From IMG/VR virus record IMGVR_UViG_2651869781_000018: a stretch of 33,021 nt of DNA; one strand, given 5' to 3'. This DNA comes from a virus. Lineage: Duplodnaviria > Heunggongvirae > Uroviricota > Caudoviricetes. Under the pieces are notes generated by a model that was not told where the DNA came from, did not search any database, and was given only the letters and a program-made list of their open reading frames with translations. This document shows, in pieces, positions 7,237 to 33,021 of this stretch. Made by a program: the position numbers and the translations under genes. Position 1 is the stretch's first letter; every line of letters begins with the position of its first letter.

Positions 7237-8196
7237 ATGAAAATTTACATCGACGACGGCTCCACCAACATCAAGCTGGCATGGACTGAGAACGGCGAAC
7301 GCCGCAACGCCATCAGCCCGAACAGCTTCAAGTCGGAATGGTCTGCGCCGTTCGGTGGCTCGCAGCCTGCTAACTACATGCTTGATGGCGTGCGCTATGG
7401 TTTTGATCCGGTCAGCGATCGCTTTGTCCAGACGACCGACACGCAATACCAGTACAGCGATGTGAATGTCATTGCCATTCATCACGCGCTGGTCAAATCA
7501 GACATCACGCCACAGGAAGTGGATGTGGTTGTTACCCTGCCACTGAGCGAATATTTCGACACAAACGCACAGCCGGACATGGCCAACATCAACCGCAAAA
7601 AAGCGAACGTCATGCGCCCGGTGGAGTACCAGAACGGCGAAGCATTCACTATCCGTAACGTACGGGTTATGCCTGAATCCATTCCGGCTGGCTTTAAAGC
7701 ACTGGCTGACATGAGTCCGTTTGAATCCCTGCTGATTGTGGATTTGGGCGGAACCACGCTGGATGTGGCAAAGGTTCAGGGGCAACTGGCAGGTATCAGC
7801 CAGGTGTTTTGCGATCCACACGTAGGCGTTTCTCTTATGGCCGATGCCGTACTGTCGGTGATGGCCACTAACGGTATGCGCACCAGTCACCACATCGCCA
7901 ATACCATTATCGAACATCGCCATAATGAAGCCTGGCTGCGCCAGCACATCCACAATGACGCGCATTACGCCAGCCTGATGGCGGTTATTCGTGAAAAGGA
8001 AGAAACACTGAAACAACGCGTGATCCGCGCGCTGGCGGTTTTTTCGGGTTACGGGCGGGTGATGGTTGTCGGTGGCGGGGCGGAGATTGTGGCACCCGCT
8101 ATCCGCGAAGCCTGCGGAGTTAATGCGACTTTCATCGCGGACGGGGTGCCACAGTTTGCTCTGGTTAATGGGCTGTACGCAATGGACAAGGAGTAA
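7237..8196 (+). CDS. parM: ParM/StbA-family actin-like segregation ATPase
   Basis: 319 aa; N-terminal phosphate-1 motif IYIDDGSTNIKLAW, then SPNSF, YSDVNVIAIHHAL, PESIPAG, LIVDLGGTTLDVA, VMVVGGGAE and FALVNGLY all align with R1 ParM (StbA) as remembered; RBS AAGGA upstream. Confidence 0.85.
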   Translation: MKIYIDDGSTNIKLAWTENGERRNAISPNSFKSEWSAPFGGSQPANYMLDGVRYGFDPVSDRFVQTTDTQYQYSDVNVIAIHHALVKSDITPQEVDVVVTLPLSEYFDTNAQPDMANINRKKANVMRPVEYQNGEAFTIRNVRVMPESIPAGFKALADMSPFESLLIVDLGGTTLDVAKVQGQLAGISQVFCDPHVGVSLMADAVLSVMATNGMRTSHHIANTIIEHRHNEAWLRQHIHNDAHYASLMAVIREKEETLKQRVIRALAVFSGYGRVMVVGGGAEIVAPAIREACGVNATFIADGVPQFALVNGLYAMDKE

Positions 8197-8200
8197 ACCA

Positions 8201-8512
8201 ATGACGACACCAACCAGACGGATAAGTTTCTATCTGAAGCCCGCCGCCGTCAAGAACGAAGGAGAAGCATGCGCCTGGCTGGACAGCCTTACACCAGAAG
8301 CCCGCAAAAGCGGCCAACGCGTGGCTTTTCTGGCCGGGCTGGCACTTCTGAAGACGAATCCGGCAGAGGCTTACCGACTGGCCGCATGGGCTGATGATGA
8401 GATGTTACCTGTGACACAAATCAGCTCAAAAAAGTTTGAAGCACAGTCTGCACCAGTGGCTAAGATAACCAGCCAGATGGCTGGGAATATCCGGGCGTTA
8501 TTTCCTGAGTAA
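8201..8512 (+). CDS. parR: ParR-like ribbon-helix-helix centromere-binding adaptor
   Basis: 103 aa starting MTTPTRRISFYLKP (ATG 5 nt after the parM stop); ISFYLKP / DSLTPEARKS / AFLAGLAL resemble R1 ParR N-terminal RHH region as remembered. Confidence 0.7.
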   Translation: MTTPTRRISFYLKPAAVKNEGEACAWLDSLTPEARKSGQRVAFLAGLALLKTNPAEAYRLAAWADDEMLPVTQISSKKFEAQSAPVAKITSQMAGNIRALFPE

Positions 8513-12584: not shown

Positions 12585-13421
12585 ATGGCTAATGAAAAAA
12601 AGACATCCCGCAAAAAGTTTCGCGTGGCTGTCTCCGGATCAACTGTTGATGGCCGTGAAATCAGTCCGGTGCATCTGCGTGAAGCCGCCGAGAACTTCAA
12701 CCCGGATGTTTACGCTGCCCGCGTGAACGTTGAGCACTATCTCTCGCCATGCCCGTCAAGCGAATTTTCCGCAATGGGCGATGTCACCGCACTGAGTACG
12801 GAAGACATTACGGAAGGTCCGCTGGCCGGACGTACTGCGCTGTATGCAGAAATCGAACCGACCGAGCGCATGAAGCAGCTTGTCGCGGACGGCAAGAAAA
12901 TCTATTCCAGTATCGAACTGCACCCGCAGTTCTCCGTTAACGGGCGCGCCTATCTGGTCGGGCTGGCGATGACCGACACCCCGGCAAGCCTGGGCACTGA
13001 GCGCCTGAAATTCACGGCACAGCAACGTCAGGCGGTGATGACGTTCAACAGTATCCAGGGTGAAGCGCCGCTTATCTCCGAAGCCATCGAGTCTGAAATC
13101 ATCGAAATGGCAGAACAACGCCAGGAAGAAGGCACCCAGTGGTTTAACCGCGTAATGGGGATTATTGGCCGTGGCCGCAAAGCGGATGACGCCAGTTTCT
13201 CCCGCATTCAGGAAGCGGTGGAAGGCGTCGCAACGTCACAGGCCGACATTATCGACCGTTTTAATGCACTGGAAACCCGCCATCAGCAGGACAGCCAGAA
13301 AATCACTTCACTGACCACAGAGCTGGCAGCACTGAAGGAAAAACTGAGCACGCAGGACGGCGATCCGCAGAACCGGTTCACCGCAACGGGCGCAGCCTCC
13401 GACCAGCTGGCTGACTTCTGA
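12585..13421 (+). CDS. O: Capsid scaffolding protein, P2 gpO-like
   Basis: In-frame start MANEKK at 12585 with AGAGGGG RBS; VDGREISP, YLVGLAMTDTPASLGTE match P2 O as remembered; divergent from P. Confidence 0.85.
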   Translation: MANEKKTSRKKFRVAVSGSTVDGREISPVHLREAAENFNPDVYAARVNVEHYLSPCPSSEFSAMGDVTALSTEDITEGPLAGRTALYAEIEPTERMKQLVADGKKIYSSIELHPQFSVNGRAYLVGLAMTDTPASLGTERLKFTAQQRQAVMTFNSIQGEAPLISEAIESEIIEMAEQRQEEGTQWFNRVMGIIGRGRKADDASFSRIQEAVEGVATSQADIIDRFNALETRHQQDSQKITSLTTELAALKEKLSTQDGDPQNRFTATGAASDQLADF

Positions 13422-13444
13422 TAAGACAAAGGAGCAAATTTTTT

Positions 13445-14497
13445 ATGAATCTGGTGATGTCAGATATTACCCGCAACAAGCTGGGTTGCTATATGGCGCA
13501 GCAGGCGTCGCTTAACAATATCCCGGTTTCCGCACTGGTATCGCGATTTACCGTGGAACCCTCGGTACAGCAGCGTTTTGAAAACGCCTCAAAGGAAAGC
13601 ACCGAATTTACAAAAAGAATTAACGTGATCGGCGTGACCGACCAGAAAGGCGAAAAAATCCTCCTGGACACCACCGGGCCAATTGCACGCACGAATACCA
13701 GTTATGACGGCACAAAACGCCGTAACCCGAATAACGTGGTTGATCTGAAAAACCGCAAATACCAGTGCGAACAGGTGAACTACGACACGTTTATTTCGTA
13801 TCCGCAGCTTGATGCCTGGTCGGCACACCCTGATTTTCAGTCCCGCATCAGCGCACAGATTGCCCGACAGGTGGCGCTTGACCGCATCATGATCGGTTTC
13901 AACGGCACGTCTCACGCGGATGAGTCCAACTTCAGCACCAACAAGCTGCTTCAGGACGTTAACGTGGGATGGCTGGAGCACATCAGAACCGACGCCAGCG
14001 AACGCGTTATGAATGACGTGACGCTGACCTCCCGCAACATGGACAACACCGTGGCGCACGCGGGTAAGTATGCGAACGCTGATGCACTGGTACAGGACGC
14101 GCGTTCATCCCTGCTGGATGAATGGCACAAGGAAGCTGACGACCTCGTGGTGATTATGGGGCGCAATCTGTTTAACTCGCTGCGTCTGCCCGTGCTGAAC
14201 AGCATCAGCGGCCAGAATCCCAATGCGGAATTACTTGCCGGGCAGCTCATCCTGTCATCGCGCACCATTGGCGGGCTGGGCGTGTTCCTTGCGCCATTCT
14301 TCCCGGATGCAACGATGCTGATCACCTCGTTCAACAACCTGTCGATTTACTGGCAGAAAGGTTCAATGCGTCGTCTGATGAAAGACGAACCGGAATACAA
14401 CCGCATCGCCACCTACCAGTCCATCAATGACGCTTATGTCGTTGAAGACTATGGCAAGTGCGCGATGGTCACTGGCCTGAAGTTCGCCGACAGCTAA
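13445..14497 (+). CDS. N: Major capsid protein, P2 gpN-like
   Basis: 350 aa; FTVEPSVQQ, MIGFNGTS, LSIYWQ, YVVEDYG match P2 N as remembered. Confidence 0.9.
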   Translation: MNLVMSDITRNKLGCYMAQQASLNNIPVSALVSRFTVEPSVQQRFENASKESTEFTKRINVIGVTDQKGEKILLDTTGPIARTNTSYDGTKRRNPNNVVDLKNRKYQCEQVNYDTFISYPQLDAWSAHPDFQSRISAQIARQVALDRIMIGFNGTSHADESNFSTNKLLQDVNVGWLEHIRTDASERVMNDVTLTSRNMDNTVAHAGKYANADALVQDARSSLLDEWHKEADDLVVIMGRNLFNSLRLPVLNSISGQNPNAELLAGQLILSSRTIGGLGVFLAPFFPDATMLITSFNNLSIYWQKGSMRRLMKDEPEYNRIATYQSINDAYVVEDYGKCAMVTGLKFADS

Positions 14498-17258: not shown

Positions 17259-17409
17259 TACTCCCACATGGGGAAATCTCGGTATATGGGGCGACCGCCT
17301 TCTGGATGCACTGGAAACCTGTAACGCGGATAAACGGGCCATTGAATTACTGGAACAGCGCAGGCTGCAACGACTGAACAACGAGGATAACAACCATGCT
17401 GAAAACTGA
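17089..17409 (+). CDS. Outer-membrane lipoprotein spanin (Rz1/LysC-like), begins inside the Rz frame and extends beyond it
   Basis: Lipobox LLTGC after a signal peptide (start may be the internal ATG at 17119); proline-rich; overlapped architecture as in P2 lysB/lysC. Confidence 0.5.
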   Translation: MNSYATILQKMNAPTLCLTLVLLTGCAGTQNAPRPAPSVRLIPQTLTIPVTPPPFPDTPTWGNLGIWGDRLLDALETCNADKRAIELLEQRRLQRLNNEDNNHAEN

Positions 17410-17863
17410 TTCCCTGCGTGAAGCCATGACCCGTTCATGCCGATGGTGTCAGGCCAACCCGGAAAAATTCACCATTTTCGTGGAGAGCGGCAACATTGAA
17501 ACGACCGGAGAAACCCCATCGTTTGTTTACCGCTATCAGATGGTGATGTTTGTCATGGATTACGCCGGGGAGCTGGATGACCTCACGCTGCCGCTGCTGG
17601 CGTGGTTATCCCAAAATCAGCCACAGTTGTTGCTCAACCCTGAGCGTAATCAGGACATCAAATTCTCCGCCGTTATCAATGACGATGACAGCGCCGATCT
17701 CCTGTTTACGCTCCCCTTGCGGGAACGCGTTCGCATCACGCGCAGCAGTCAGGGCACACCGCAGGCAGAACACCTGCCGGAGCCAAAACCCCGCCTGCCA
17801 TCTTCCGAAGGCGACTGGTCGCATGTATTCCAGGATGTGACGTGGGGTGAAAGCGATGGATAA
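17396..17863 (+). CDS. R: Tail completion protein R-like
   Basis: 155 aa; synteny after the lysis cassette. Confidence 0.75.
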   Translation: MLKTDSLREAMTRSCRWCQANPEKFTIFVESGNIETTGETPSFVYRYQMVMFVMDYAGELDDLTLPLLAWLSQNQPQLLLNPERNQDIKFSAVINDDDSADLLFTLPLRERVRITRSSQGTPQAEHLPEPKPRLPSSEGDWSHVFQDVTWGESDG

Positions 17864-20316: not shown

Positions 20317-20839
20317 TTCACTGTTACCACCATCAGCCAGCAGTTTCATGCGTTGTGCCGAAGCTGTCGGAACGCGCATTACAGACATCCCGGTAGACCT
20401 CAACACGCTGTGGTCGCCGGATACCTGCCCGGTGCATCTGCTGCCTTACCTCGCCTGGGCGTTTTCCGTTGACCGCTGGGATCGCAACTGGCCGGAAGAG
20501 ACAAAACGACAGGTGATTCGTGATGCATGGCTGATACACCGACACAAAGGGACCATCAGCGCACTGCGCAGGGCCATTGAGCCGCTGGGATACCTCATTC
20601 GCGTGTCTGAGTGGTGGGAGTTCGGCGGAGAACCGGGAACATTTACCGTTGAAGTCGGCACACTGGACAGTGGCGTGACGGAGGAAATGTATCTGGAAAT
20701 GGAGCGGTTGATTGCTGATGCCCGTCCGGTCAGCCGCCACATGACAGGGCTGAATATCATTCAGGAAATTCCGGGGGATATTTTCGCAGCGGCGGCAACT
20801 TATGACGGTGAAGTTATTACCATTTATCCGGACGATTAA
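20309..20839 (+). CDS. I: Baseplate / tail fibre attachment protein I
   Basis: Start MSNSLL at 20309 overlapping the J stop by 8 nt, RBS GAAGG; synteny. Confidence 0.75.
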   Translation: MSNSLLPPSASSFMRCAEAVGTRITDIPVDLNTLWSPDTCPVHLLPYLAWAFSVDRWDRNWPEETKRQVIRDAWLIHRHKGTISALRRAIEPLGYLIRVSEWWEFGGEPGTFTVEVGTLDSGVTEEMYLEMERLIADARPVSRHMTGLNIIQEIPGDIFAAAATYDGEVITIYPDD

Positions 20840-20841
20840 GC

Positions 20842-23001
20842 ATGAGTACCACAACACGAAAATTTAAAACCGTTATCACCGATACAGGTGCCAAAAAATT
20901 AGCTCAGGCAGCCGCGCCAGATGGTAAGCCTGTTCGCCTGACTCATATGGCCGTGGGCGACGGTGGCGGCACGTTGCCCACACCAGACAGTAAGCAGACC
21001 CGTCTGGTGCATGAGGTGTGGCGACATACTGTTAATCGCGTCATCCTGGACGCAACACATCAGAACCGCATTATTGCGGAGCTGCTTATTCCTCCTGAAA
21101 CGGGCGGATTCTGGATCCGGGAAATTGGTGTGTTTGATGAGAACGGCGATTTGATCGCGGTGGGCAATACTGCCGAAAGTTACAAGCCAATCGTTGCCGA
21201 AGGGTCCGGACGCGCACAAACATTTCGCACCATTCTGACCGTATCCAGCACTGCCACCGTGGCGCTTACCGTGAATAACACCATGGTGATGGCCACAGTG
21301 GATTACGTGGATGACAAACTGAAAGAGCATGAACAGTCACGACGTCACCCGGACGCCTCGCTGACCGCAAAAGGCTTTGTTCAACTCAGTAGCGCCACTA
21401 ACAGCGTGTCTGAAACGCAGGCTGCAACGCCGAAAGCGGTTAAGGCCGCGTATGATCTTGCTAACGGTAAATATACTGCGCAGGATGCCAGCACGACGCG
21501 AAAAGGCCTTGTCCAGCTCAGTAGTGCCACCAACAGCACGTCTGAAACACTGGCCGCGACATCGAAAGCGGTTAAGGCGGTAATGGATGAAACGAACAAG
21601 AAAGCGCCCTTAAACAGTCCTGCGTTGACCGGAACACCAACAACACCAACTGCGCCAAAAGGGACTAATAATACTCAGATCGCAAGCACGGCTTATGTTA
21701 TGGCTGCGATCGCTGCCCTCGTGGATTCGTCGCCTGATGCACTGAATACGCTGAACGAGTTGGCTGCGGCGTTGGGCAACGACCCGAATTTTGCGACCAC
21801 CATGACTAACGCGCTTGCGGGTAAGCAACCGAAAGATGCCACCCTGACGGCGCTGGCCGGGCTTGCTACTGCGGCAGACAAGTTTCCGTATTTTACGGGG
21901 AATGATGTCGCCAGCCTGGCAACCCTGACAAAAGTCGGGCGGGATATTCTTGCGAAATCGACCGTTGCTGCCGTTATCGAATACCTCGGTTTGCAGGAAA
22001 CGGTAAATAAGGCTTCTGGCGCATTACAGAAAAACCAGAACGGCGCAGATATTCCCGATAAAAAACTATTCCTGCGTAATATCGGCACAACAAATTCAAC
22101 AACCATGTCTTTTAGTGGTGGTGCTGGATGGTTCAAACTGGCAACTGTAACAATGCCACAAGCCAGTTCCGTGGTTTACATAAGCCTGATTGGTGGCGCA
22201 GGGTTTAACGTTGGCTCCCCGCATCAAGCAGGCGTCTCTGAGCTGGTTCTGCGTGCCGGAAATGGAAATCCAAAAGGTATTACTGGTGCATTATGGCGAC
22301 GGACCTCGGTTGGATTTACTAATTTTGCATGGGTGAATACATCCGGTGATACCTATGATGTTTATGTTGAAATAGGTAATTACGCCACAGGTGTTAATAT
22401 TCAGTGGGATTATACCAGTAACGCCAGCGTAACGATTCATACATCACCAACTTATACAGCGAATAAACCAACAGGCCTGACAGATGGAACTGTATATGTA
22501 ATTTACAGTTCGCACATTAAACCGACTGCTGCTGAGGTTGGGGCGTTGTCATTATCTGGCGGTCAATTGAATGGTGCACTGGGCATCGGAACATCCAGTG
22601 CTCTTGGTGGTAACTCGATTGTTTTGGGTGATAATGACACGGGATTTAAACAAAATGGCGACGGGTATCTGGATGTTTATGCTAATAACGTCCATGTTAT
22701 GCGCTTTGTCTCCGGCAGTATTCAAAGTAATAAAACCATAAATATTACAGGGCGTGTTAATCCCTCAGATTACGGTAACTTTGATTCCCGTTATGTGAAA
22801 GATGTTCGACTTGGTTCACAGCAATATTATGGCGTGAACAACTGGCAAACATGGAATTTCCAGTGCCCGTCAGGTCATGTATTGACTGGTATTAATGTTC
22901 AGGATACAGGGTCCAATTCTGCCGATAATATAGCGGGCGTTTATTACAGACCCGTTCAAAAGTATATAAATGGCACCTGGTATAATGTAGCGAGCGTTTA
23001 A
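20842..23001 (+). CDS. H: Tail fibre protein H (constant N-terminal part fused to the currently expressed variable C-terminal part)
   Basis: 719 aa; internal tandem repeat ([24 protein letters not shown], about 21364..21590); C-terminus ...[14 protein letters not shown] nearly identical to the C-terminus of the inverted H' cassette. Confidence 0.9.
21974..21999. promoter_or_regulatory. Left crossover site of the invertible segment (gix/hix-like 26-bp site TTATCGAATACCTCGGTTTGCAGGAA) inside H
   Basis: Inverted copy of the site upstream of the invertase gene; core AAACC-GA-GGTTT-type dyad as in Gin/Hin/Cin/Pin systems; coordinates approximate (+/-2). Confidence 0.7.
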
Positions 23002-23002
23002 T

Positions 23003-23530
23003 ATGATGCACTTAAAGAACATAAAAGCGGGTAACGCTAAAACACTGGAACAGTATGAGTTAACAAAGAAACACGGAGTTATCTGGCTTTACTCTGAGGA
23101 CGGAAAAAACTGGTATGAGGAAGTGAAAAACTTTCAGCCAGACACCATAAAGATTGTTTACGATGAAAATAATATTATTGTCGCCATCACCAAAGATGCA
23201 TCCACGCTTAACCCTGAAGGTTTTAGCGTCGTTGAGGTTCCCGATATAACAACCAATCGTCGGGCCGATGATTCCGGTAAGTGGATGTTTAAGGACGGAG
23301 CTGTGGTTAAACGGATTTATACGGCTGACGAACAGCAACAACAGGCCGAATCACAAAAGGCCGCGGTACTTTCCGAAGCAGAAAGCGTTATTCAGCCACT
23401 GGAGCGCGCTGTCAGGCTGAATATGGCGACGGATGAGGAACGCGCACGACTGGAATCATGGGAACGCCACAGTGTTCTGGTCAGCCGTGTGGATACAGCA
23501 AATCCTGAATGGCCACAAAAGCCTGAATAA
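23003..23530 (+). CDS. G: Tail fibre assembly chaperone G
   Basis: 175 aa; strongly similar to the divergent paralogue on the minus strand (HLKNI.AGN.KT.EQY.LTK...[18 protein letters not shown]). Confidence 0.85.
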
Positions 23531-23534
23531 AAAT

Positions 23535-23556
23535 TAAGGCCCGATAGTGGGCCTTG
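23535..23556. terminator. Hairpin (AAGGCCC-GATAGT-GGGCCTT) between convergent G and G', likely bidirectional terminator
   Basis: Perfect 7-bp GC-rich inverted repeat between two converging stop codons. Confidence 0.5.
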
Positions 23557-23558
23557 TC

Positions 23559-24092
23559 TCATTCTGGTTGTTCGGGAAACGTTACTGGCAGGCTGGAGGT
23601 GTCTGTAGATTCGACTTTCTGCGCATAGAGCATCCACTCGGTTAATTTTTGTTTATTCTCGTCGGAAATGATACCCAGCCGTAGCTGTGAGTCCCATAGC
23701 TGGGTTTTATCCCTGACAAGTTGCAACAGGCTTTGCTTTTCATTCTCTGCCTGCTGCCTCTGTTCCTCCTCGGTATAAGTTCGCTTTATCACCGCGCCAT
23801 CTTTGAACATCCAGTTACCCGAAATATCAGCCCGTCTATTGGCTGTTATATCAGGCAACTCAACAACGCTTAAACCTTCTGGATTAATTGCCGATACATC
23901 CTTATCAATAGCAACAATAACTCCCTCTGCTGTGTAAGCTAGCTTTATTGTATCTTCCTGAAAGTTTTTCACTTCCTCATACCAGTTTTTTCCGTCTTCA
24001 GACCATAACCAGATAACATTAAAATTCTTTGTTAGCTGATATTGTTCAACGGTTTTTGGATTACCTGCGACAATGTTTTTTAAATGCTGCAT
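23559..24092 (-). CDS. Alternative tail fibre assembly chaperone G' (silent in this orientation)
   Basis: 177 aa paralogue of G on the opposite strand inside the invertible segment. Confidence 0.85.
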
Positions 24093-24095
24093 AAG

Positions 24096-25040
24096 TTACA
24101 CCTGCGCCACGTTATACCATGTGCCATTGATGTATTTTTGTATTGGTCTGAATACAGCCGGATCATCGCCATCAACAGAGCCAATAATGCCAAGCCCTGT
24201 AATTACATGACCTGATTTCTCATACATCACGCCTTTTTGCATGGTCTGAACAACACGAGTGCCCAGGCGAATATCTCGTACATAGCGAGAATCCGATTCA
24301 GCTTTGGTATATGCACCAACATCTCCCGCAGAGGGTTTGCGGGTTGTGGTATAAAACTCTGACCAGTCAGCCTCAAATCCATAACCATCTCGCGCTGAAC
24401 GATAATAAATACCGCCGTTCTTATAATTCACGCGTAATTGTACAGCCGGGCAGCTACCCGCGTTCATATTGAAATGAAGAATTAATGTTGATGCGCCTTT
24501 TAGGTCTGCATCATAAACACCGCTATTCCAGTTCCAGCCAACAGCTTTATCATTTGCAACCCTGTTTCCTGTCTGCCCTAAAGCAAATGCAGGTTGCAGG
24601 TTTTTCGTGTTGTAGTCTCGTCGCCAGCCAGGAGCGTAAGCATCACCATGATTAATATAAGTGAATTGAGCGTTAGTGATTCCGCCACCACTGGAAGTGC
24701 TTGGTGTTGTTACACGGATGGTCATGGCACCTTTATTACCCATAACCTCAATAACGCAACCTGCAAGATGAATAGTTCCACAGCCAGTATCGGTTATAAT
24801 TTTATTATTGCCATACGACCATGAACATTTGCACATCCAGTATGGGTGATTGAATGCCCCTTGAGAATCCAGCCATTCAATCAATTGTGCCGTTGTCCAG
24901 TTCCCTGCACCTGTACTAATAGAACTGTGAAAAGCGCGACATGCACCAATATTTTTTGTGAAGGTATCTTTTCCTGGAATATCTGCGCCGTTCTGGTTTT
25001 TCTGCAATGCGCCTGAAGCCTGATTTATCGTTTCCTGCAA
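24096..25040 (-). CDS. Alternative tail fibre variable C-terminal cassette H' (promoterless; would be fused to the constant part of H after inversion)
   Basis: Begins [21 protein letters not shown], the same junction sequence found inside H ([22 protein letters not shown]); ends ...[14 protein letters not shown]; the annotated start codon is TTG and is probably not a true initiation site. Confidence 0.75.
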   Translation of the reverse strand: MQETINQASGALQKNQNGADIPGKDTFTKNIGACRAFHSSISTGAGNWTTAQLIEWLDSQGAFNHPYWMCKCSWSYGNNKIITDTGCGTIHLAGCVIEVMGNKGAMTIRVTTPSTSSGGGITNAQFTYINHGDAYAPGWRRDYNTKNLQPAFALGQTGNRVANDKAVGWNWNSGVYDADLKGASTLILHFNMNAGSCPAVQLRVNYKNGGIYYRSARDGYGFEADWSEFYTTTRKPSAGDVGAYTKAESDSRYVRDIRLGTRVVQTMQKGVMYEKSGHVITGLGIIGSVDGDDPAVFRPIQKYINGTWYNVAQV

Positions 25041-25058
25041 ACCGAGGTTTTAGATAAT
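25033..25058. promoter_or_regulatory. Right crossover site of the invertible segment (TTCCTGCAAACCGAGGTTTTAGATAA)
   Basis: Reverse complement of the left site over the half TTCCTGCAAACCGAGG; lies just upstream of the invertase gene; coordinates approximate (+/-2). Confidence 0.7.
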
Positions 25059-25093
25059 GGCCGTTTCTGACCTGCATGGCATGATTTACGCTT

Positions 25094-25699
25094 TTGGACG
25101 GGAGATTCAGCGTGCTGATTGGCTATGTAAGGGTATCAACAAATGACCAGAATACAGACCTGCAACGAAACGCTCTTGTTTGTGCAGGATGTGAACAAAT
25201 ATTTGAAGATAAATTAAGCGGGACAAAGACAGACCGACCGGGATTAAAACGCGCTTTAAAGCGCCTTCAAAAAGGTGACACGCTGGTTGTCTGGAAACTG
25301 GATCGCCTCGGGCGAAGCATGAAACATCTGATTTCTCTCGTCGGGGAACTACGGGAGCGAGGGATTAATTTTCGCAGTCTGACCGACAGCATAGATACAT
25401 CTTCTCCAATGGGGCGTTTTTTCTTCCACGTGATGGGTGCCCTGGCTGAAATGGAACGTGAATTAATTGTTGAACGTACACTGGCCGGACTGGCAGCAGC
25501 GCGCGCACGGGGGCGCACAGGCGGACGTCGCCCGAAGCTGACAAAAGAACAGCATGAGCAAATAGCAAGGCTGATTAAAAACGGTCACGACAGAAAACAA
25601 CTGGCAATAATTTACGGCATTGGTACATCGACGATTTATCGTTACCACCCCGCAGGAGAATCAAGCGGAACAATAGAGAAGAGTCAGAAAACAAAATAA
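25094..25699 (+). CDS. Serine DNA invertase, Gin/Pin/Cin/Hin (Din) family
   Basis: N-terminal catalytic motif LIGYVRVSTNDQNTDLQRNAL, then GDTLVVWKLDRLGRS and a C-terminal HTH; very close to Mu Gin as remembered. Annotated start is TTG at 25094; a GTG at about 25112 (M-LIGYV) with GGGAGA RBS is an alternative. Confidence 0.9.
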   Translation: MDGRFSVLIGYVRVSTNDQNTDLQRNALVCAGCEQIFEDKLSGTKTDRPGLKRALKRLQKGDTLVVWKLDRLGRSMKHLISLVGELRERGINFRSLTDSIDTSSPMGRFFFHVMGALAEMERELIVERTLAGLAAARARGRTGGRRPKLTKEQHEQIARLIKNGHDRKQLAIIYGIGTSTIYRYHPAGESSGTIEKSQKTK

Positions 25700-31467: not shown

Positions 31468-32577
31468 ATGACCGACACCACCATGCAATTGCTCAGTCAG
31501 GGCACAGACCCCGTGAAAATGCCGGATTTTGATATTCTCGCCGAGGGTAAAACGCTGTCCGGCGTGGCAGAACGCCTGATGAGCCTGTCACTGACCGACA
31601 ACCGGGGATTTGAGGCGGACCAGCTCACCATCACGCTGGATGATGCCGATGGCCAGTTGCAGCTACCGCCACGGGGCGCGCGTCTGACGGTTCTCATTGG
31701 CTGGAAAGGGGAACCGCTGACAGAAAAAGGCACTTACATTGTTGATGAAATCGCTCACGAAGGACCGCCGGACAGGCTGACTGTTTCAGCCAGAAGCGCA
31801 GATTTTCGGGATGAATTTAACGTTAAACGTGAGGTGTCCTGGCATGATGTGACCGTTGAGCGTGTGGTATCCGCCATCGCTCATCGGTATGGTCTGAAAC
31901 CGCAAATCAGCGAAATGCTGATGGATATCGAAATCGACCACGCCGACCAGACCGAAGAAAGCGACATGTCCTTCCTTACGCGCATGGCGGAAATGCTGGG
32001 CGCAATCACCACGGTAAAAAGCGGTAATCTGTTATTCATCATGCCCGGTGGTGGCGTGAACGCACAGGGCCAGCCGTTGCCCTCGTTCGCCATCACACGC
32101 AACAGCGGCGATCGCCATCAGTTCCGCATTGCTGACCGCGAAGCGTATACGGGGGTACGCGCTTACTGGCTTGATCTTAATTACGGGAAAAAGAAAAAAG
32201 TCAGCGTGAAACGCCGCAAACCGTCAAAACCAAAAAAGGAGAAAAGCAGCAGCCGGGAAGGCGACTATATGGAAGGTGCGGAAGGCAACGTGTTTGTGTT
32301 ACGCAAAACTTATCAGAACGAGCAGGCAGCAAGACGCGCAGCGGCGGCAAAGTGGCAGCAGCTACAACGCGGAGCCGCATCATTCTCCATCACGCTGGCG
32401 CGTGGACGTGCAGAACTCTACCCCGAAATGCATGGCACGGTAACAGGATTTAAAAACGAGATTGATAATCAGGACTGGATTATTGCAAAAGCCGAGCACA
32501 CCATTGATAACAGCGGCTTTACCACGCAGCTTGAGCTTGAGGCAAAAATCCCGGAATGGATAGCAGAAACAGAGTGA
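31468..32577 (+). CDS. D: Late control / tail protein D (gpD)
   Basis: Start MTDTTMQ with GGGAGGGAG RBS; LTDNRGFEADQL, SARSADFR, ESD.SFLTRMAE, GDRH.F.IADR.AYTGV, EGDYMEG..NVF, SGFTTQLELE match P2 D as remembered. Confidence 0.85.
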   Translation: MTDTTMQLLSQGTDPVKMPDFDILAEGKTLSGVAERLMSLSLTDNRGFEADQLTITLDDADGQLQLPPRGARLTVLIGWKGEPLTEKGTYIVDEIAHEGPPDRLTVSARSADFRDEFNVKREVSWHDVTVERVVSAIAHRYGLKPQISEMLMDIEIDHADQTEESDMSFLTRMAEMLGAITTVKSGNLLFIMPGGGVNAQGQPLPSFAITRNSGDRHQFRIADREAYTGVRAYWLDLNYGKKKKVSVKRRKPSKPKKEKSSSREGDYMEGAEGNVFVLRKTYQNEQAARRAAAAKWQQLQRGAASFSITLARGRAELYPEMHGTVTGFKNEIDNQDWIIAKAEHTIDNSGFTTQLELEAKIPEWIAETE

Positions 32578-32645
32578 GCAACTTAGACATATTAGCTCAA
32601 ACTTAAACTGGCAAGTTTACAGTATAGAATTAAACATAAACGACG

Positions 32646-32675
32646 GTCCGCTCCGTGTCAGAAGCGGACTTTGTC
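32646..32675. terminator. Hairpin (GTCCGCT-N10-AGCGGAC) with flanking T-rich runs between convergent D and the truncated AT-rich gene
   Basis: 7-bp inverted repeat followed by TTTGT on the plus strand. Confidence 0.4.
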
Positions 32676-32697
32676 ATCCCTATGTAAGGTTGATTGC

Positions 32698-33021
32698 TTA
32701 ATACGCATTTAATTTAAATTTGTATTTGCCTTCTATGTAATGGATAAATTCAATTATGCTTTTTTCTATCGCATCTAATATATGAATATATCCATCCCGA
32801 TTTAAGGTCCTATCCAACTCAAAGTGATGAACTATCCCATGTCTATATTGTATGATTTCAGAAATTCGATTCTCAAGAAAATCAACTGATTTTCCAATTC
32901 TTTTTTTCTTATAAAGAATCGCTCTCACATCTATATCCAGCCACTCTTTATATGCTTTGTTTAGGTGGGTTAAGTTTTGAAAAGTGTAATTTCTTGCAAT
33001 AACACTTTCTATTGAAATATT
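32698..33021 (-). CDS. 3' portion of a foreign-looking, AT-rich gene truncated by the window edge; C-terminal region carries an R-x4-H (HEPN-like) motif
   Basis: Minus-strand frame stays open from the stop at 32698 to the window end (manual translation ...NISIESVIARNYTFQNLTHLNKAYKEWLDIDVRAILYKKKRIGKSVDFLENRISEIIQYRHGIVHHFELDR...), so the annotated GTG start at 32928 is not the real start; composition visibly much more AT-rich than the prophage. Confidence 0.45.
   Translation of the reverse strand, partial: NISIESVIARNYTFQNLTHLNKAYKEWLDIDVRAILYKKKRIGKSVDFLENRISEIIQYRHGIVHHFELDRTLNRDGYIHILDAIEKSIIEFIHYIEGKYKFKLNAY

Follow-up and report, generated by a model that had tools for sequence, protein, structure and literature searches.

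Prophage-encoded solo HEPN nucleases have only lately been shown to be complete sense-and-kill defences. The described case is HepS from the Salmonella prophage Gifsy-1 (Sargen et al. 2026; PDB 9OIJ/9OIK), an abortive-infection anticodon nuclease acting on its own; its tetramer is by default off until a siphovirus tail-tip peptide opens it, after which it cleaves tRNA anticodon loops (PMC13043305). The catalytic principle is that the two Rx4-6H motifs of a HEPN dimer form a metal-independent ribonuclease (RNase) site (PMC3710099). One group, RiboL-PSP-HEPN, is a predicted active RNase with a distant relationship to AbiF/AbiD (PMC3710099, Anantharaman et al. 2013); PD-T4-5, a single-gene abortive-infection defence, is likewise a distant AbiF/D relative (PMC9519451), and the listing of the corresponding Pfam family, PF18735, includes PD-T4-5, PD-T4-2, PD-T7-3, and ApeA (PMC10952713). 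Here we describe a 340-aa protein, WP_000532200.1, the gene of which runs off the right end of the P2-like viral record IMGVR_UViG_2651869781_000018 (33,021 nt, the whole of which is referred to as the window) and which probably is an uncharacterised stand-alone HEPN abortive-infection or defence RNase expressed from the lysogen.

WP_000532200.1 and HepS are alike in being single HEPN proteins with an Rx4H motif, in occupying an accessory slot of a temperate prophage, and in having no partner or inhibitor gene; a Pantoea relative of the 340-aa gene is, in addition, also located downstream of lambdoid replication genes. They differ in their carriers, a lambdoid siphovirus for HepS and a P2-like myovirus for WP_000532200.1, and in architecture, HepS homologues being defined as single-domain proteins of <250 aa whereas the protein studied here has an extra N-terminal α/β domain. 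No sequence relationship between the two was detectable in PDB sequence and profile searches (E <= 10). With RiboL-PSP-HEPN the protein shares a C-terminal domain that fits the PF18735 profile and a conserved Rx4-6H motif. The contexts of the founding members, i.e., fusion to an L-PSP endoRNase or a place in a ParB operon, were found neither in the protein nor among its neighbours, but these are contextual traits and not a requirement of the Pfam domain. PADLOC models for PD-T4-x, ApeA, and the Abi families matched neither the protein nor its family. The RnlA/LsoA (RNase LS) toxins, which have an anti-phage role, are of similar size and also place an N-terminal α/β region before a C-terminal HEPN RNase, and an "RNaseLS-like protein" was among the weak BFVD matches of WP_000532200.1, with structural scores no better than those of unrelated folds. 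In contrast to WP_000532200.1, however, RnlA/LsoA have two N-terminal domains instead of one; no Pfam RnlA match was obtained, and no RnlB/LsoB-type antitoxin gene was found near the 340-aa gene. We regard the WP_000532200.1 family as a second, unrelated lineage of the solo-HEPN design, with a new N-terminal domain and a predicted role in defence.

A two-domain protein with a predicted HEPN domain

Gene D is annotated as "phage late control D family protein" in loci identical to the window, and its start ATG at 31469 is preceded by the ribosome-binding sequence GGGAGGGAG. The sequence that follows D is strikingly AT rich (GC content 0.320 over positions 32578-33021 versus 0.531 over 1-32577) and contains a minus-strand frame that stops at 32698-32700 and is still open at base 33021 (107 residues plus stop). 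This is as described in the first-pass annotation of the window, which had also noticed an R-x4-H motif, YRHGIVHH, of the HEPN type; the motif is indeed encoded by this frame, and the corresponding stretch of the fragment is EIIQYRHGIVHHFELD. Within the fragment, an Rx4H motif alone is not beyond chance: one was present in 33% of composition-preserving shuffles, and Rx4-6H in 69%, while the fragment itself has two Rx4H motifs, at fragment residues R60 and R75, one of them nonconserved. Since the motif is expected in a third of the shuffles, the HEPN assignment was based on invariance across the family and not on the motif itself.

The full-length gene could be recovered because the last 622 bp of the window are 100% identical to several complete Escherichia coli chromosomes, including that of strain 266917_2 (locus L001; window position = L001 + 20399). 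Extension past position 33021 in the identical genomes yielded both the complete 340-aa open reading frame (ORF) and ogr (Table 1). The gene's ATG has a Shine-Dalgarno sequence, AGGTGA, 8 nt upstream. A word-indexed search returned 295 homologues. Among the best 120, found in Pantoea, Proteus, Shewanella, Aeromonas, Pseudomonas, Methylococcaceae, and Halochromatium, identity over all 340 aa ranges from 64 to 99%, and most have a precomputed PF18735 match. Remote searches were queried with P0001, a protein identical to that of L001 at 338 of 340 positions. Searched exhaustively with a profile, 1.84 billion cluster representatives yielded 342 clusters, the full-length ones being of ~330-350 aa with the same architecture.

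In an alignment of 67 full-length family members, reaching down to about 20% identity, only E194, R293, and H298 are invariant, with N183, F247, Q248, and H294 being near-invariant. E194 sits in the first long helix of the HEPN domain. PF18735 (HEPN_RiboL-PSP) was matched by 48 of these 67 members at E <= 0.01 (best E 5e-9), and the family consensus, with 32.2 bits (E 1.2e-7), exceeded the 28.4-bit gathering score and covered profile positions 7-190 of 191. In the AlphaFold model (mean pLDDT [predicted local distance difference test] 76), residues 1-125 form an α/β domain of good confidence, which is followed by a long helix and, at 167-333, by an all-helical region. The protein has two domains, an uncharacterised N-terminal α/β domain (about 1-125) and a predicted C-terminal, all-helical HEPN domain of the RiboL-PSP type (about 160-335) with an intact E...Rx4H signature. 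Family invariance, the consensus Pfam score, and the helical C-terminal half together rescue the HEPN call despite the chance-level motif, and at the level of the family the predicted HEPN identity is supported. The full-length gene product is predicted to carry the domain that had been suspected from the C-terminal fragment.

Structural comparison was less informative. Foldseek searches against PDB and BFVD gave nothing significant, with weak matches only, and phmmer plus profile hmmsearch against all PDB chain sequences gave no match at E <= 10. NCBIfam and PHROGs had no informative match for the protein. The N-terminal domain has no Pfam, NCBIfam, or PHROGs assignment; the Pfam hints among the 67 members and their consensus were all subthreshold (RraB at E 0.04, and Mrpl_C). 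These weak structural matches would be compatible with a HEPN-like fold that is noncatalytic in vivo, the protein being an RNA or ligand binder with another role in lysogenic conversion (stress or virulence). Some HEPN families are in fact binders, e.g., MtlR (PMC3710099), and the real activity could reside in the highly conserved N-terminal domain with its orphan fold. However, the sole invariant residues, E194, R293, and H298, are the canonical catalytic-type positions of HEPN domains, as expected of an active RNase, and we consider a noncatalytic protein very improbable.

The gene is internal to the prophage

In L001, the gene order is D, cargo, ogr, hok/sok, and then host genes (Table 1). 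No ogr is found in the remaining 444 bp of the window after D, as first noted, but it begins 891 bp past the edge, behind the cargo; its absence is an artefact of where the window was cut, and the suggestion that ogr had been replaced was mistaken. The window itself opens with the integrase stop and is mosaically related to the 266917_2 prophage. In the IMG/VR contig L019 the D gene is identical to that of the window, the sheath gene differs by 1 base, and the D-cargo-ogr-hok order is the same; this arrangement recurs in five IMG/VR P2-like contigs.

Within the window, low GC and the lack of ogr are all that would speak for host chromosome past attR or for a spurious frame in AT-rich sequence. 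Because ogr and hok/sok separate the gene from the host DNA, the gene is cargo internal to the prophage, a P2-like one (Peduoviridae) of E. coli; its position past attR is ruled out by these two loci and by the recurrent order in the viral contigs. The 295 homologues, together with a ratio of nonsynonymous to synonymous substitution rates (dN/dS) of about 0.07, likewise argue against a spurious frame, and either form of this explanation is hardly conceivable. The first-pass annotation's reading of the region as horizontally acquired cargo at the prophage end has thus held, with the gene lying between D and ogr, at a site with empty and other-cargo alleles, and being AT rich relative to every host in which it is found (e.g., GC 0.37 versus 0.58 in Aeromonas).

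Table 1. Features of the window's right end and of its continuation in the identical E. coli locus (positions beyond 33021 are window equivalents)
Feature	Position	Strand	Source or remark
Gene D (late control/tail protein D)	31469..32577	+	Conserved core gene; left border of the variable site
Junction sequence GCAACTTAGA	32578..32587	.	Empty (L004, L005) versus filled (L001, L003, L006, L007) loci
Left boundary arm of the cassette, AT-rich, noncoding	32581..32694	.	Related to left arms of other-cargo cassettes and, inverted, to their right arms
Both boundary arms in L001	L001 12179-12295 and about 13390-13512; window left side 32578-32694		
GC-rich hairpin GTCCGCT-TCTGACACGG-AGCGGAC, then CGTCGTTTAT	32646..32669 (L001 12270-12247)	-	Terminator scan; intrinsic-terminator-like for the HEPN gene
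3' third of the gene, residues 234-340 + stop (C-terminal part of the predicted HEPN domain)	32698..33021	-	Translation
Codons R293-H-G-I-V-H298 (Rx4H of the predicted HEPN RNase active site)	32827..32844	-	Reverse complement AGA CAT GGG ATA GTT CAT
340-aa ORF, WP_000532200.1 "hypothetical protein"	32698-33720 (L001 12299-13321)	-	Annotation in identical genome
Spacer between the 340-aa ORF and ogr	191 bp		L001
ogr	33912-34172		L001; starts past the window end
hok/gef, with a sok-like RNA before it	hok 34363-34503; pair about 34217-34503 (L001 13818-14104)		L001
Host genes	Beyond hok/gef		L001

The minus-strand hairpin downstream of the gene has a predicted RNA fold of -24.8 kcal/mol (z -3.9; 0 of 200 shuffles equally stable). 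Read on the plus strand, the same palindrome (32652-32668, then CTTTGTC) would terminate D transcription.

The cassette was also found in the phage record NC_049343. That record, NC_049343.1 (Escherichia phage 500465-2), a RefSeq "complete phage genome," contains at 24449-33041 ~8.5 kb of host chromosome (TagO, flk, fabB, mnmC, and an insertion sequence [IS] transposase) and is without the integrase and early region seen in the related prophage of strain 266917_2 (L018). The inclusion of host genes together with the missing integrase/early region indicates that its borders are an artefact of prophage prediction.

As to the other end of the locus, hok/gef and the sok-like RNA follow ogr in every P2-like prophage sampled, regardless of integration site, and the ogr-hok pair accompanies prophages at four different integration sites. 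The Rfam sok match has 48 bits (E 3e-9), under the gathering score of 59. With hok and a sok-like RNA after ogr, the right end of the prophage carries a type I addiction module.

The D-ogr junction is a variable cargo site

Of 5426 complete E. coli genomes, 1137 contain the 3' end of D, and 65 contain the HEPN cassette, which is then always present as one chromosomal copy. The family is accordingly present in about 1% of complete E. coli genomes, as well as across Gammaproteobacteria, and is missed by PADLOC. A probe for the empty D-ogr junction matched end to end in 720 of the 1202 genomes that matched it, i.e., about 60% have at least one empty junction, in which the D-ogr gap measures 40-42 bp. 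Other loci are filled with unrelated genes: a 500-aa PIN-domain protein (L003, 4004-5506), a 379-aa YecA-family protein present in about 80 genomes, many of them O157/O26/O111 (L006, 4178-5317), and a ComF/phosphoribosyltransferase (PRTase) gene plus a 185-aa hypothetical protein (L007, 4012-5159). PADLOC recognised no system among these alternative cargos, with one weak resemblance of the PRTase to PsyrT; the PIN, YecA-like, and PRTase genes are further candidate defence genes.

The HEPN gene has the properties of a prophage accessory ("moron") cargo, with core genes on its flanks, empty and alternative alleles, its own terminator, and an atypical composition (GC 0.34 in the HEPN cargo versus 0.52). 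Between prophages with up to 3% divergence in D and the sheath gene, the cassette is 99.7-100% identical, a pattern of recent cassette exchange between backbones.

The cargo hotspots described in P2-like phages are the gpA-gpQ interval, the tail region, and the surroundings of int (PMC9122126, PMC9519451, PMC13586616), and neither the D-ogr junction nor ogr is mentioned in these papers. Compared with the P2 hotspots (old/tin at gpA-gpQ and Z/fun in the tail region; Rousset 2022, Vassallo 2022, Moura de Sousa 2026, Egorov 2024), the junction is likewise a slot between core genes that is either empty or filled with unrelated AT-rich cargo, and near-identical cargo is found on differing backbones, as described for rapid defence swapping. 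Unlike those hotspots, its cargos are unrecognised by PADLOC and its cassettes have conserved inverted boundary arms of about 100 nt. The D-ogr junction would extend the P2 hotspot map.

Cassette boundaries and mobility

Comparison of empty and filled loci defined the insertion site. The empty site is GCAACTTAGA followed directly by ATAGCGGCAGC (GCAACTTAGA, then ATAGCGG), and the filled site reads GCAACTTAGA / TGTATT...cargo...ATTACA / ACTTAGA ATAGCGG, a related copy of the junction sequence, CAAyyTAGA, standing at the right end of the cargo just ahead of the ATAGCGG... leader of ogr. The four unrelated cargos thus share their boundaries, namely, diverged inverted repeats of ~100 nt plus a direct repeat of the empty-site sequence that is 7-10 bp long and has an ACTTAGA core. 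Between the different cargos, left arms are related to one another (z 8-14; the exception is L001 versus the PIN locus L003, z 1.0), and so are right arms (z 6-20; the exception is L001 versus L007, z 2.9). Once the right arms are reverse complemented, left arms align with them over 97-131 nt at 62-69% identity (z up to 10.8; 0 of 300 shuffles). For the L001 left arm the figures are 64% over 119-127 nt against the reverse-complemented right arms of L006 and L007 (z 10.8 and 8.3); the two arms of the HEPN locus gave no significant alignment against each other (z -0.6). Each arm contains a GC-rich hairpin. That a boundary arm might be a dispersed multicopy repeat was rejected at the sensitivity of blastn, a search with one arm in E. 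coli detecting same-cargo loci only.

The shared inverted and direct repeats would point to an insertion that was site specific or transposition-like, as with a mobile insertion cassette or a miniature inverted-repeat transposable element (MITE) carrying passenger genes. The arms may be paired insulating terminators with an ogr promoter, or they may be relics of such a transposition-like insertion. The HEPN gene is the only minus-strand cargo among the four, and an inversion between the arms would explain this orientation, which we offer as a lead and not as a finding. PMC13586616 names the recombination by which P2-like phages swap defences as an unexplained gap, and the repeat-bounded cassettes give a handle on it.

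The right arm provides a promoter-like TTGGAA/TTGGAG-17-TAGAAT directly upstream of ogr, in the HEPN cassette TTGGAA-17-TAGAAT. Together with the location of the gene, between the last gene of the late operon and the late activator ogr, antisense to both, and with a bidirectional terminator in common with D, this would fit an RNase or regulator that serves the phage instead of defending the lysogen, through host RNA shut-off, control of late/ogr transcripts, or interference with P4-type satellites exploiting ogr/delta. The polymorphism of the site argues otherwise: about 60% of junction-bearing genomes have a related prophage without cargo, so the gene is dispensable for the phage cycle, unrelated genes fill the same site, and the same gene is also found outside phages, in chromosomal islands. 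We therefore consider a phage-serving function quite improbable.

A bolder reading combines the boundaries with the protein. In it, the D-ogr junction would be an undescribed P2 cargo site with cassettes that are mobile units, and the 340-aa protein would found a single-gene abortive-infection family whose fold-orphan N-terminal domain senses a conserved infection cue and not a variable phage protein. Taken as a whole, this is rather unlikely.

A stand-alone gene under strong purifying selection

Compared with copies 81-83% identical, the HEPN gene has a dN/dS of 0.07-0.08. Synonymous sites are saturated against more distant copies, yet the proteins remain 64-73% identical, and across Pantoea, Proteus, Shewanella, Aeromonas, Pseudomonas, and Halochromatium protein identities are 64-87%. 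The gene is under strong purifying selection. The comparison with L025, an IMG/VR contig, was excluded as invalid owing to a 1-nt deletion in that copy.

The deletion in L025 (IMGVR_UViG_2711768071_000013, one of five E. coli-type viral contigs) lies in the HEPN gene (L025 3538-4556), inside the stretch that corresponds to window positions 32578-33021; this copy is either frameshifted or affected by a sequencing error.

All-against-all BLASTP of seven loci from different genera revealed no shared neighbour protein, and no recurring partner was seen in six further contexts read by annotation. In the E. coli cassette there is no ORF of >47 aa besides the HEPN gene; no Rfam RNA or tandem repeat (Tandem Repeats Finder) was found beside it and no nucleotidyltransferase Pfam domain in the flanks. 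The antitoxin or MNT-type nucleotidyltransferase partner that the first-pass annotation had proposed to look for was accordingly not found across the compared loci.

These results bear on whether the protein could be an addiction or toxin-antitoxin (TA) toxin with a hidden small-protein or RNA antitoxin in the cassette, its main role being prophage stabilisation, like that of hok/sok, and not anti-phage defence. HEPN domains are common TA toxins, e.g., in HEPN-MNT and RnlA-RnlB (PMC3710099), the prophage end already has hok with a sok-like RNA, and the 191-bp region upstream of the HEPN gene contains small ORFs of 27-35 aa. Against this, no neighbour protein is common to the seven loci or recurs in the six further contexts, no MNT, RnlB-like, or other partner gene was found, and there is no Rfam antitoxin RNA or ToxI-like tandem repeat beside the gene, which also occurs as a lone insertion among metabolic genes. 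A solo HEPN protein that is inactive by default has, moreover, a precedent in HepS (PMC13043305). An addiction toxin is, on balance, distinctly unlikely.

Elsewhere, relatives of the gene occupy various prophage sites and islands. The Pantoea copy in a lambdoid prophage, downstream of the replication genes, is near a SIR2 gene; a second prophage, which has tail and baseplate genes of the P2 type, carries a relative downstream of its tail-fibre assembly gene (a Z/fun-type position), and in another prophage a relative adjoins umuDC and a tail fibre. Further relatives were found beside a UvrD-like helicase in a Pseudomonas AlpA/DUF927 integrative element, in an smpB island that also has AbiTii, a type I restriction-modification system, and two integrases, at an smpB-adjacent locus with an HNH gene, beside DUF4160/DUF2442 toxin-antitoxin genes at one locus, and in an IS110 neighbourhood. 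Lone insertions were also seen, one of them the insertion among metabolic genes. A defence gene that is self-sufficient and horizontally mobile would be expected to be spread over prophage sites and islands in this way.

Predicted role

That the gene might encode a defence or toxin function, as first suggested, is plausible from its genomic context, and the function itself is something that we infer. From the precedents of HepS and PD-T4-5, we propose a default-off HEPN RNase that would sense infection through its N-terminal domain or its oligomer. The protein would be made in the lysogen and kept inactive until a cue from an infecting phage is sensed by the N-terminal domain or by the oligomeric state, whereupon two HEPN domains would build a composite, metal-independent RNase site cutting tRNA or mRNA. 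Translation would then halt and the cycle of the competing phage would abort, with protection of the lysogen population and of the prophage.

Several observations weigh against this role. The individual match of WP_000532200.1 to PF18735 (22.5-24.2 bits, with E 1.2e-4 at 22.5 bits) is under the curated 28.4-bit cut-off. The PADLOC-DB v2.0.0 models gave no match to the protein at E <= 10 and, with the 67 family members, scattered single chance-level matches only. In the literature on WP_000532200 or its RiboL-PSP/PF18735 family, no experiment was found. No convincing sigma-70 promoter was found upstream of the HEPN gene. The N-terminal domain appears unusually conserved for a sensor of fast-evolving phage proteins. 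Finally, that the D-ogr site is a defence hotspot is itself inferred, its other cargos being unrecognised as defence systems. If the gene were inert, it would merely be another hypothetical prophage accessory gene; it is readily testable, since only one gene of 1 kb is involved and two active-site mutants are obvious.

Other variable regions of the prophage

At the gpA-gpQ hotspot, window positions 7237-8512 contain a 319-aa ORF (7237-8196) and a small downstream ORF, which in L018, 98% identical in this region, are annotated as ParM and plasmid-partitioning genes. Cargo of the ParM/partitioning type is present in about a quarter of P2-like phages (Rousset et al.).

Positions 20842-25699 contain a 719-aa tail-fibre gene and an assembly gene, then, on the opposite strand, a second assembly-like ORF and a 314-aa ORF, and next a 201-aa ORF that aligned with the L018 "recombinase family protein." The layout would be that of an invertible host-range segment. 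GC in this region is 0.40-0.45, and most of 20752-25118 is without a megablast match to L018.

An extra 1.9-kb DUF6645 gene follows the lysis genes in L018 (19576-21456) and is absent from the window at ~17344-17438, which marks another variable insertion site.

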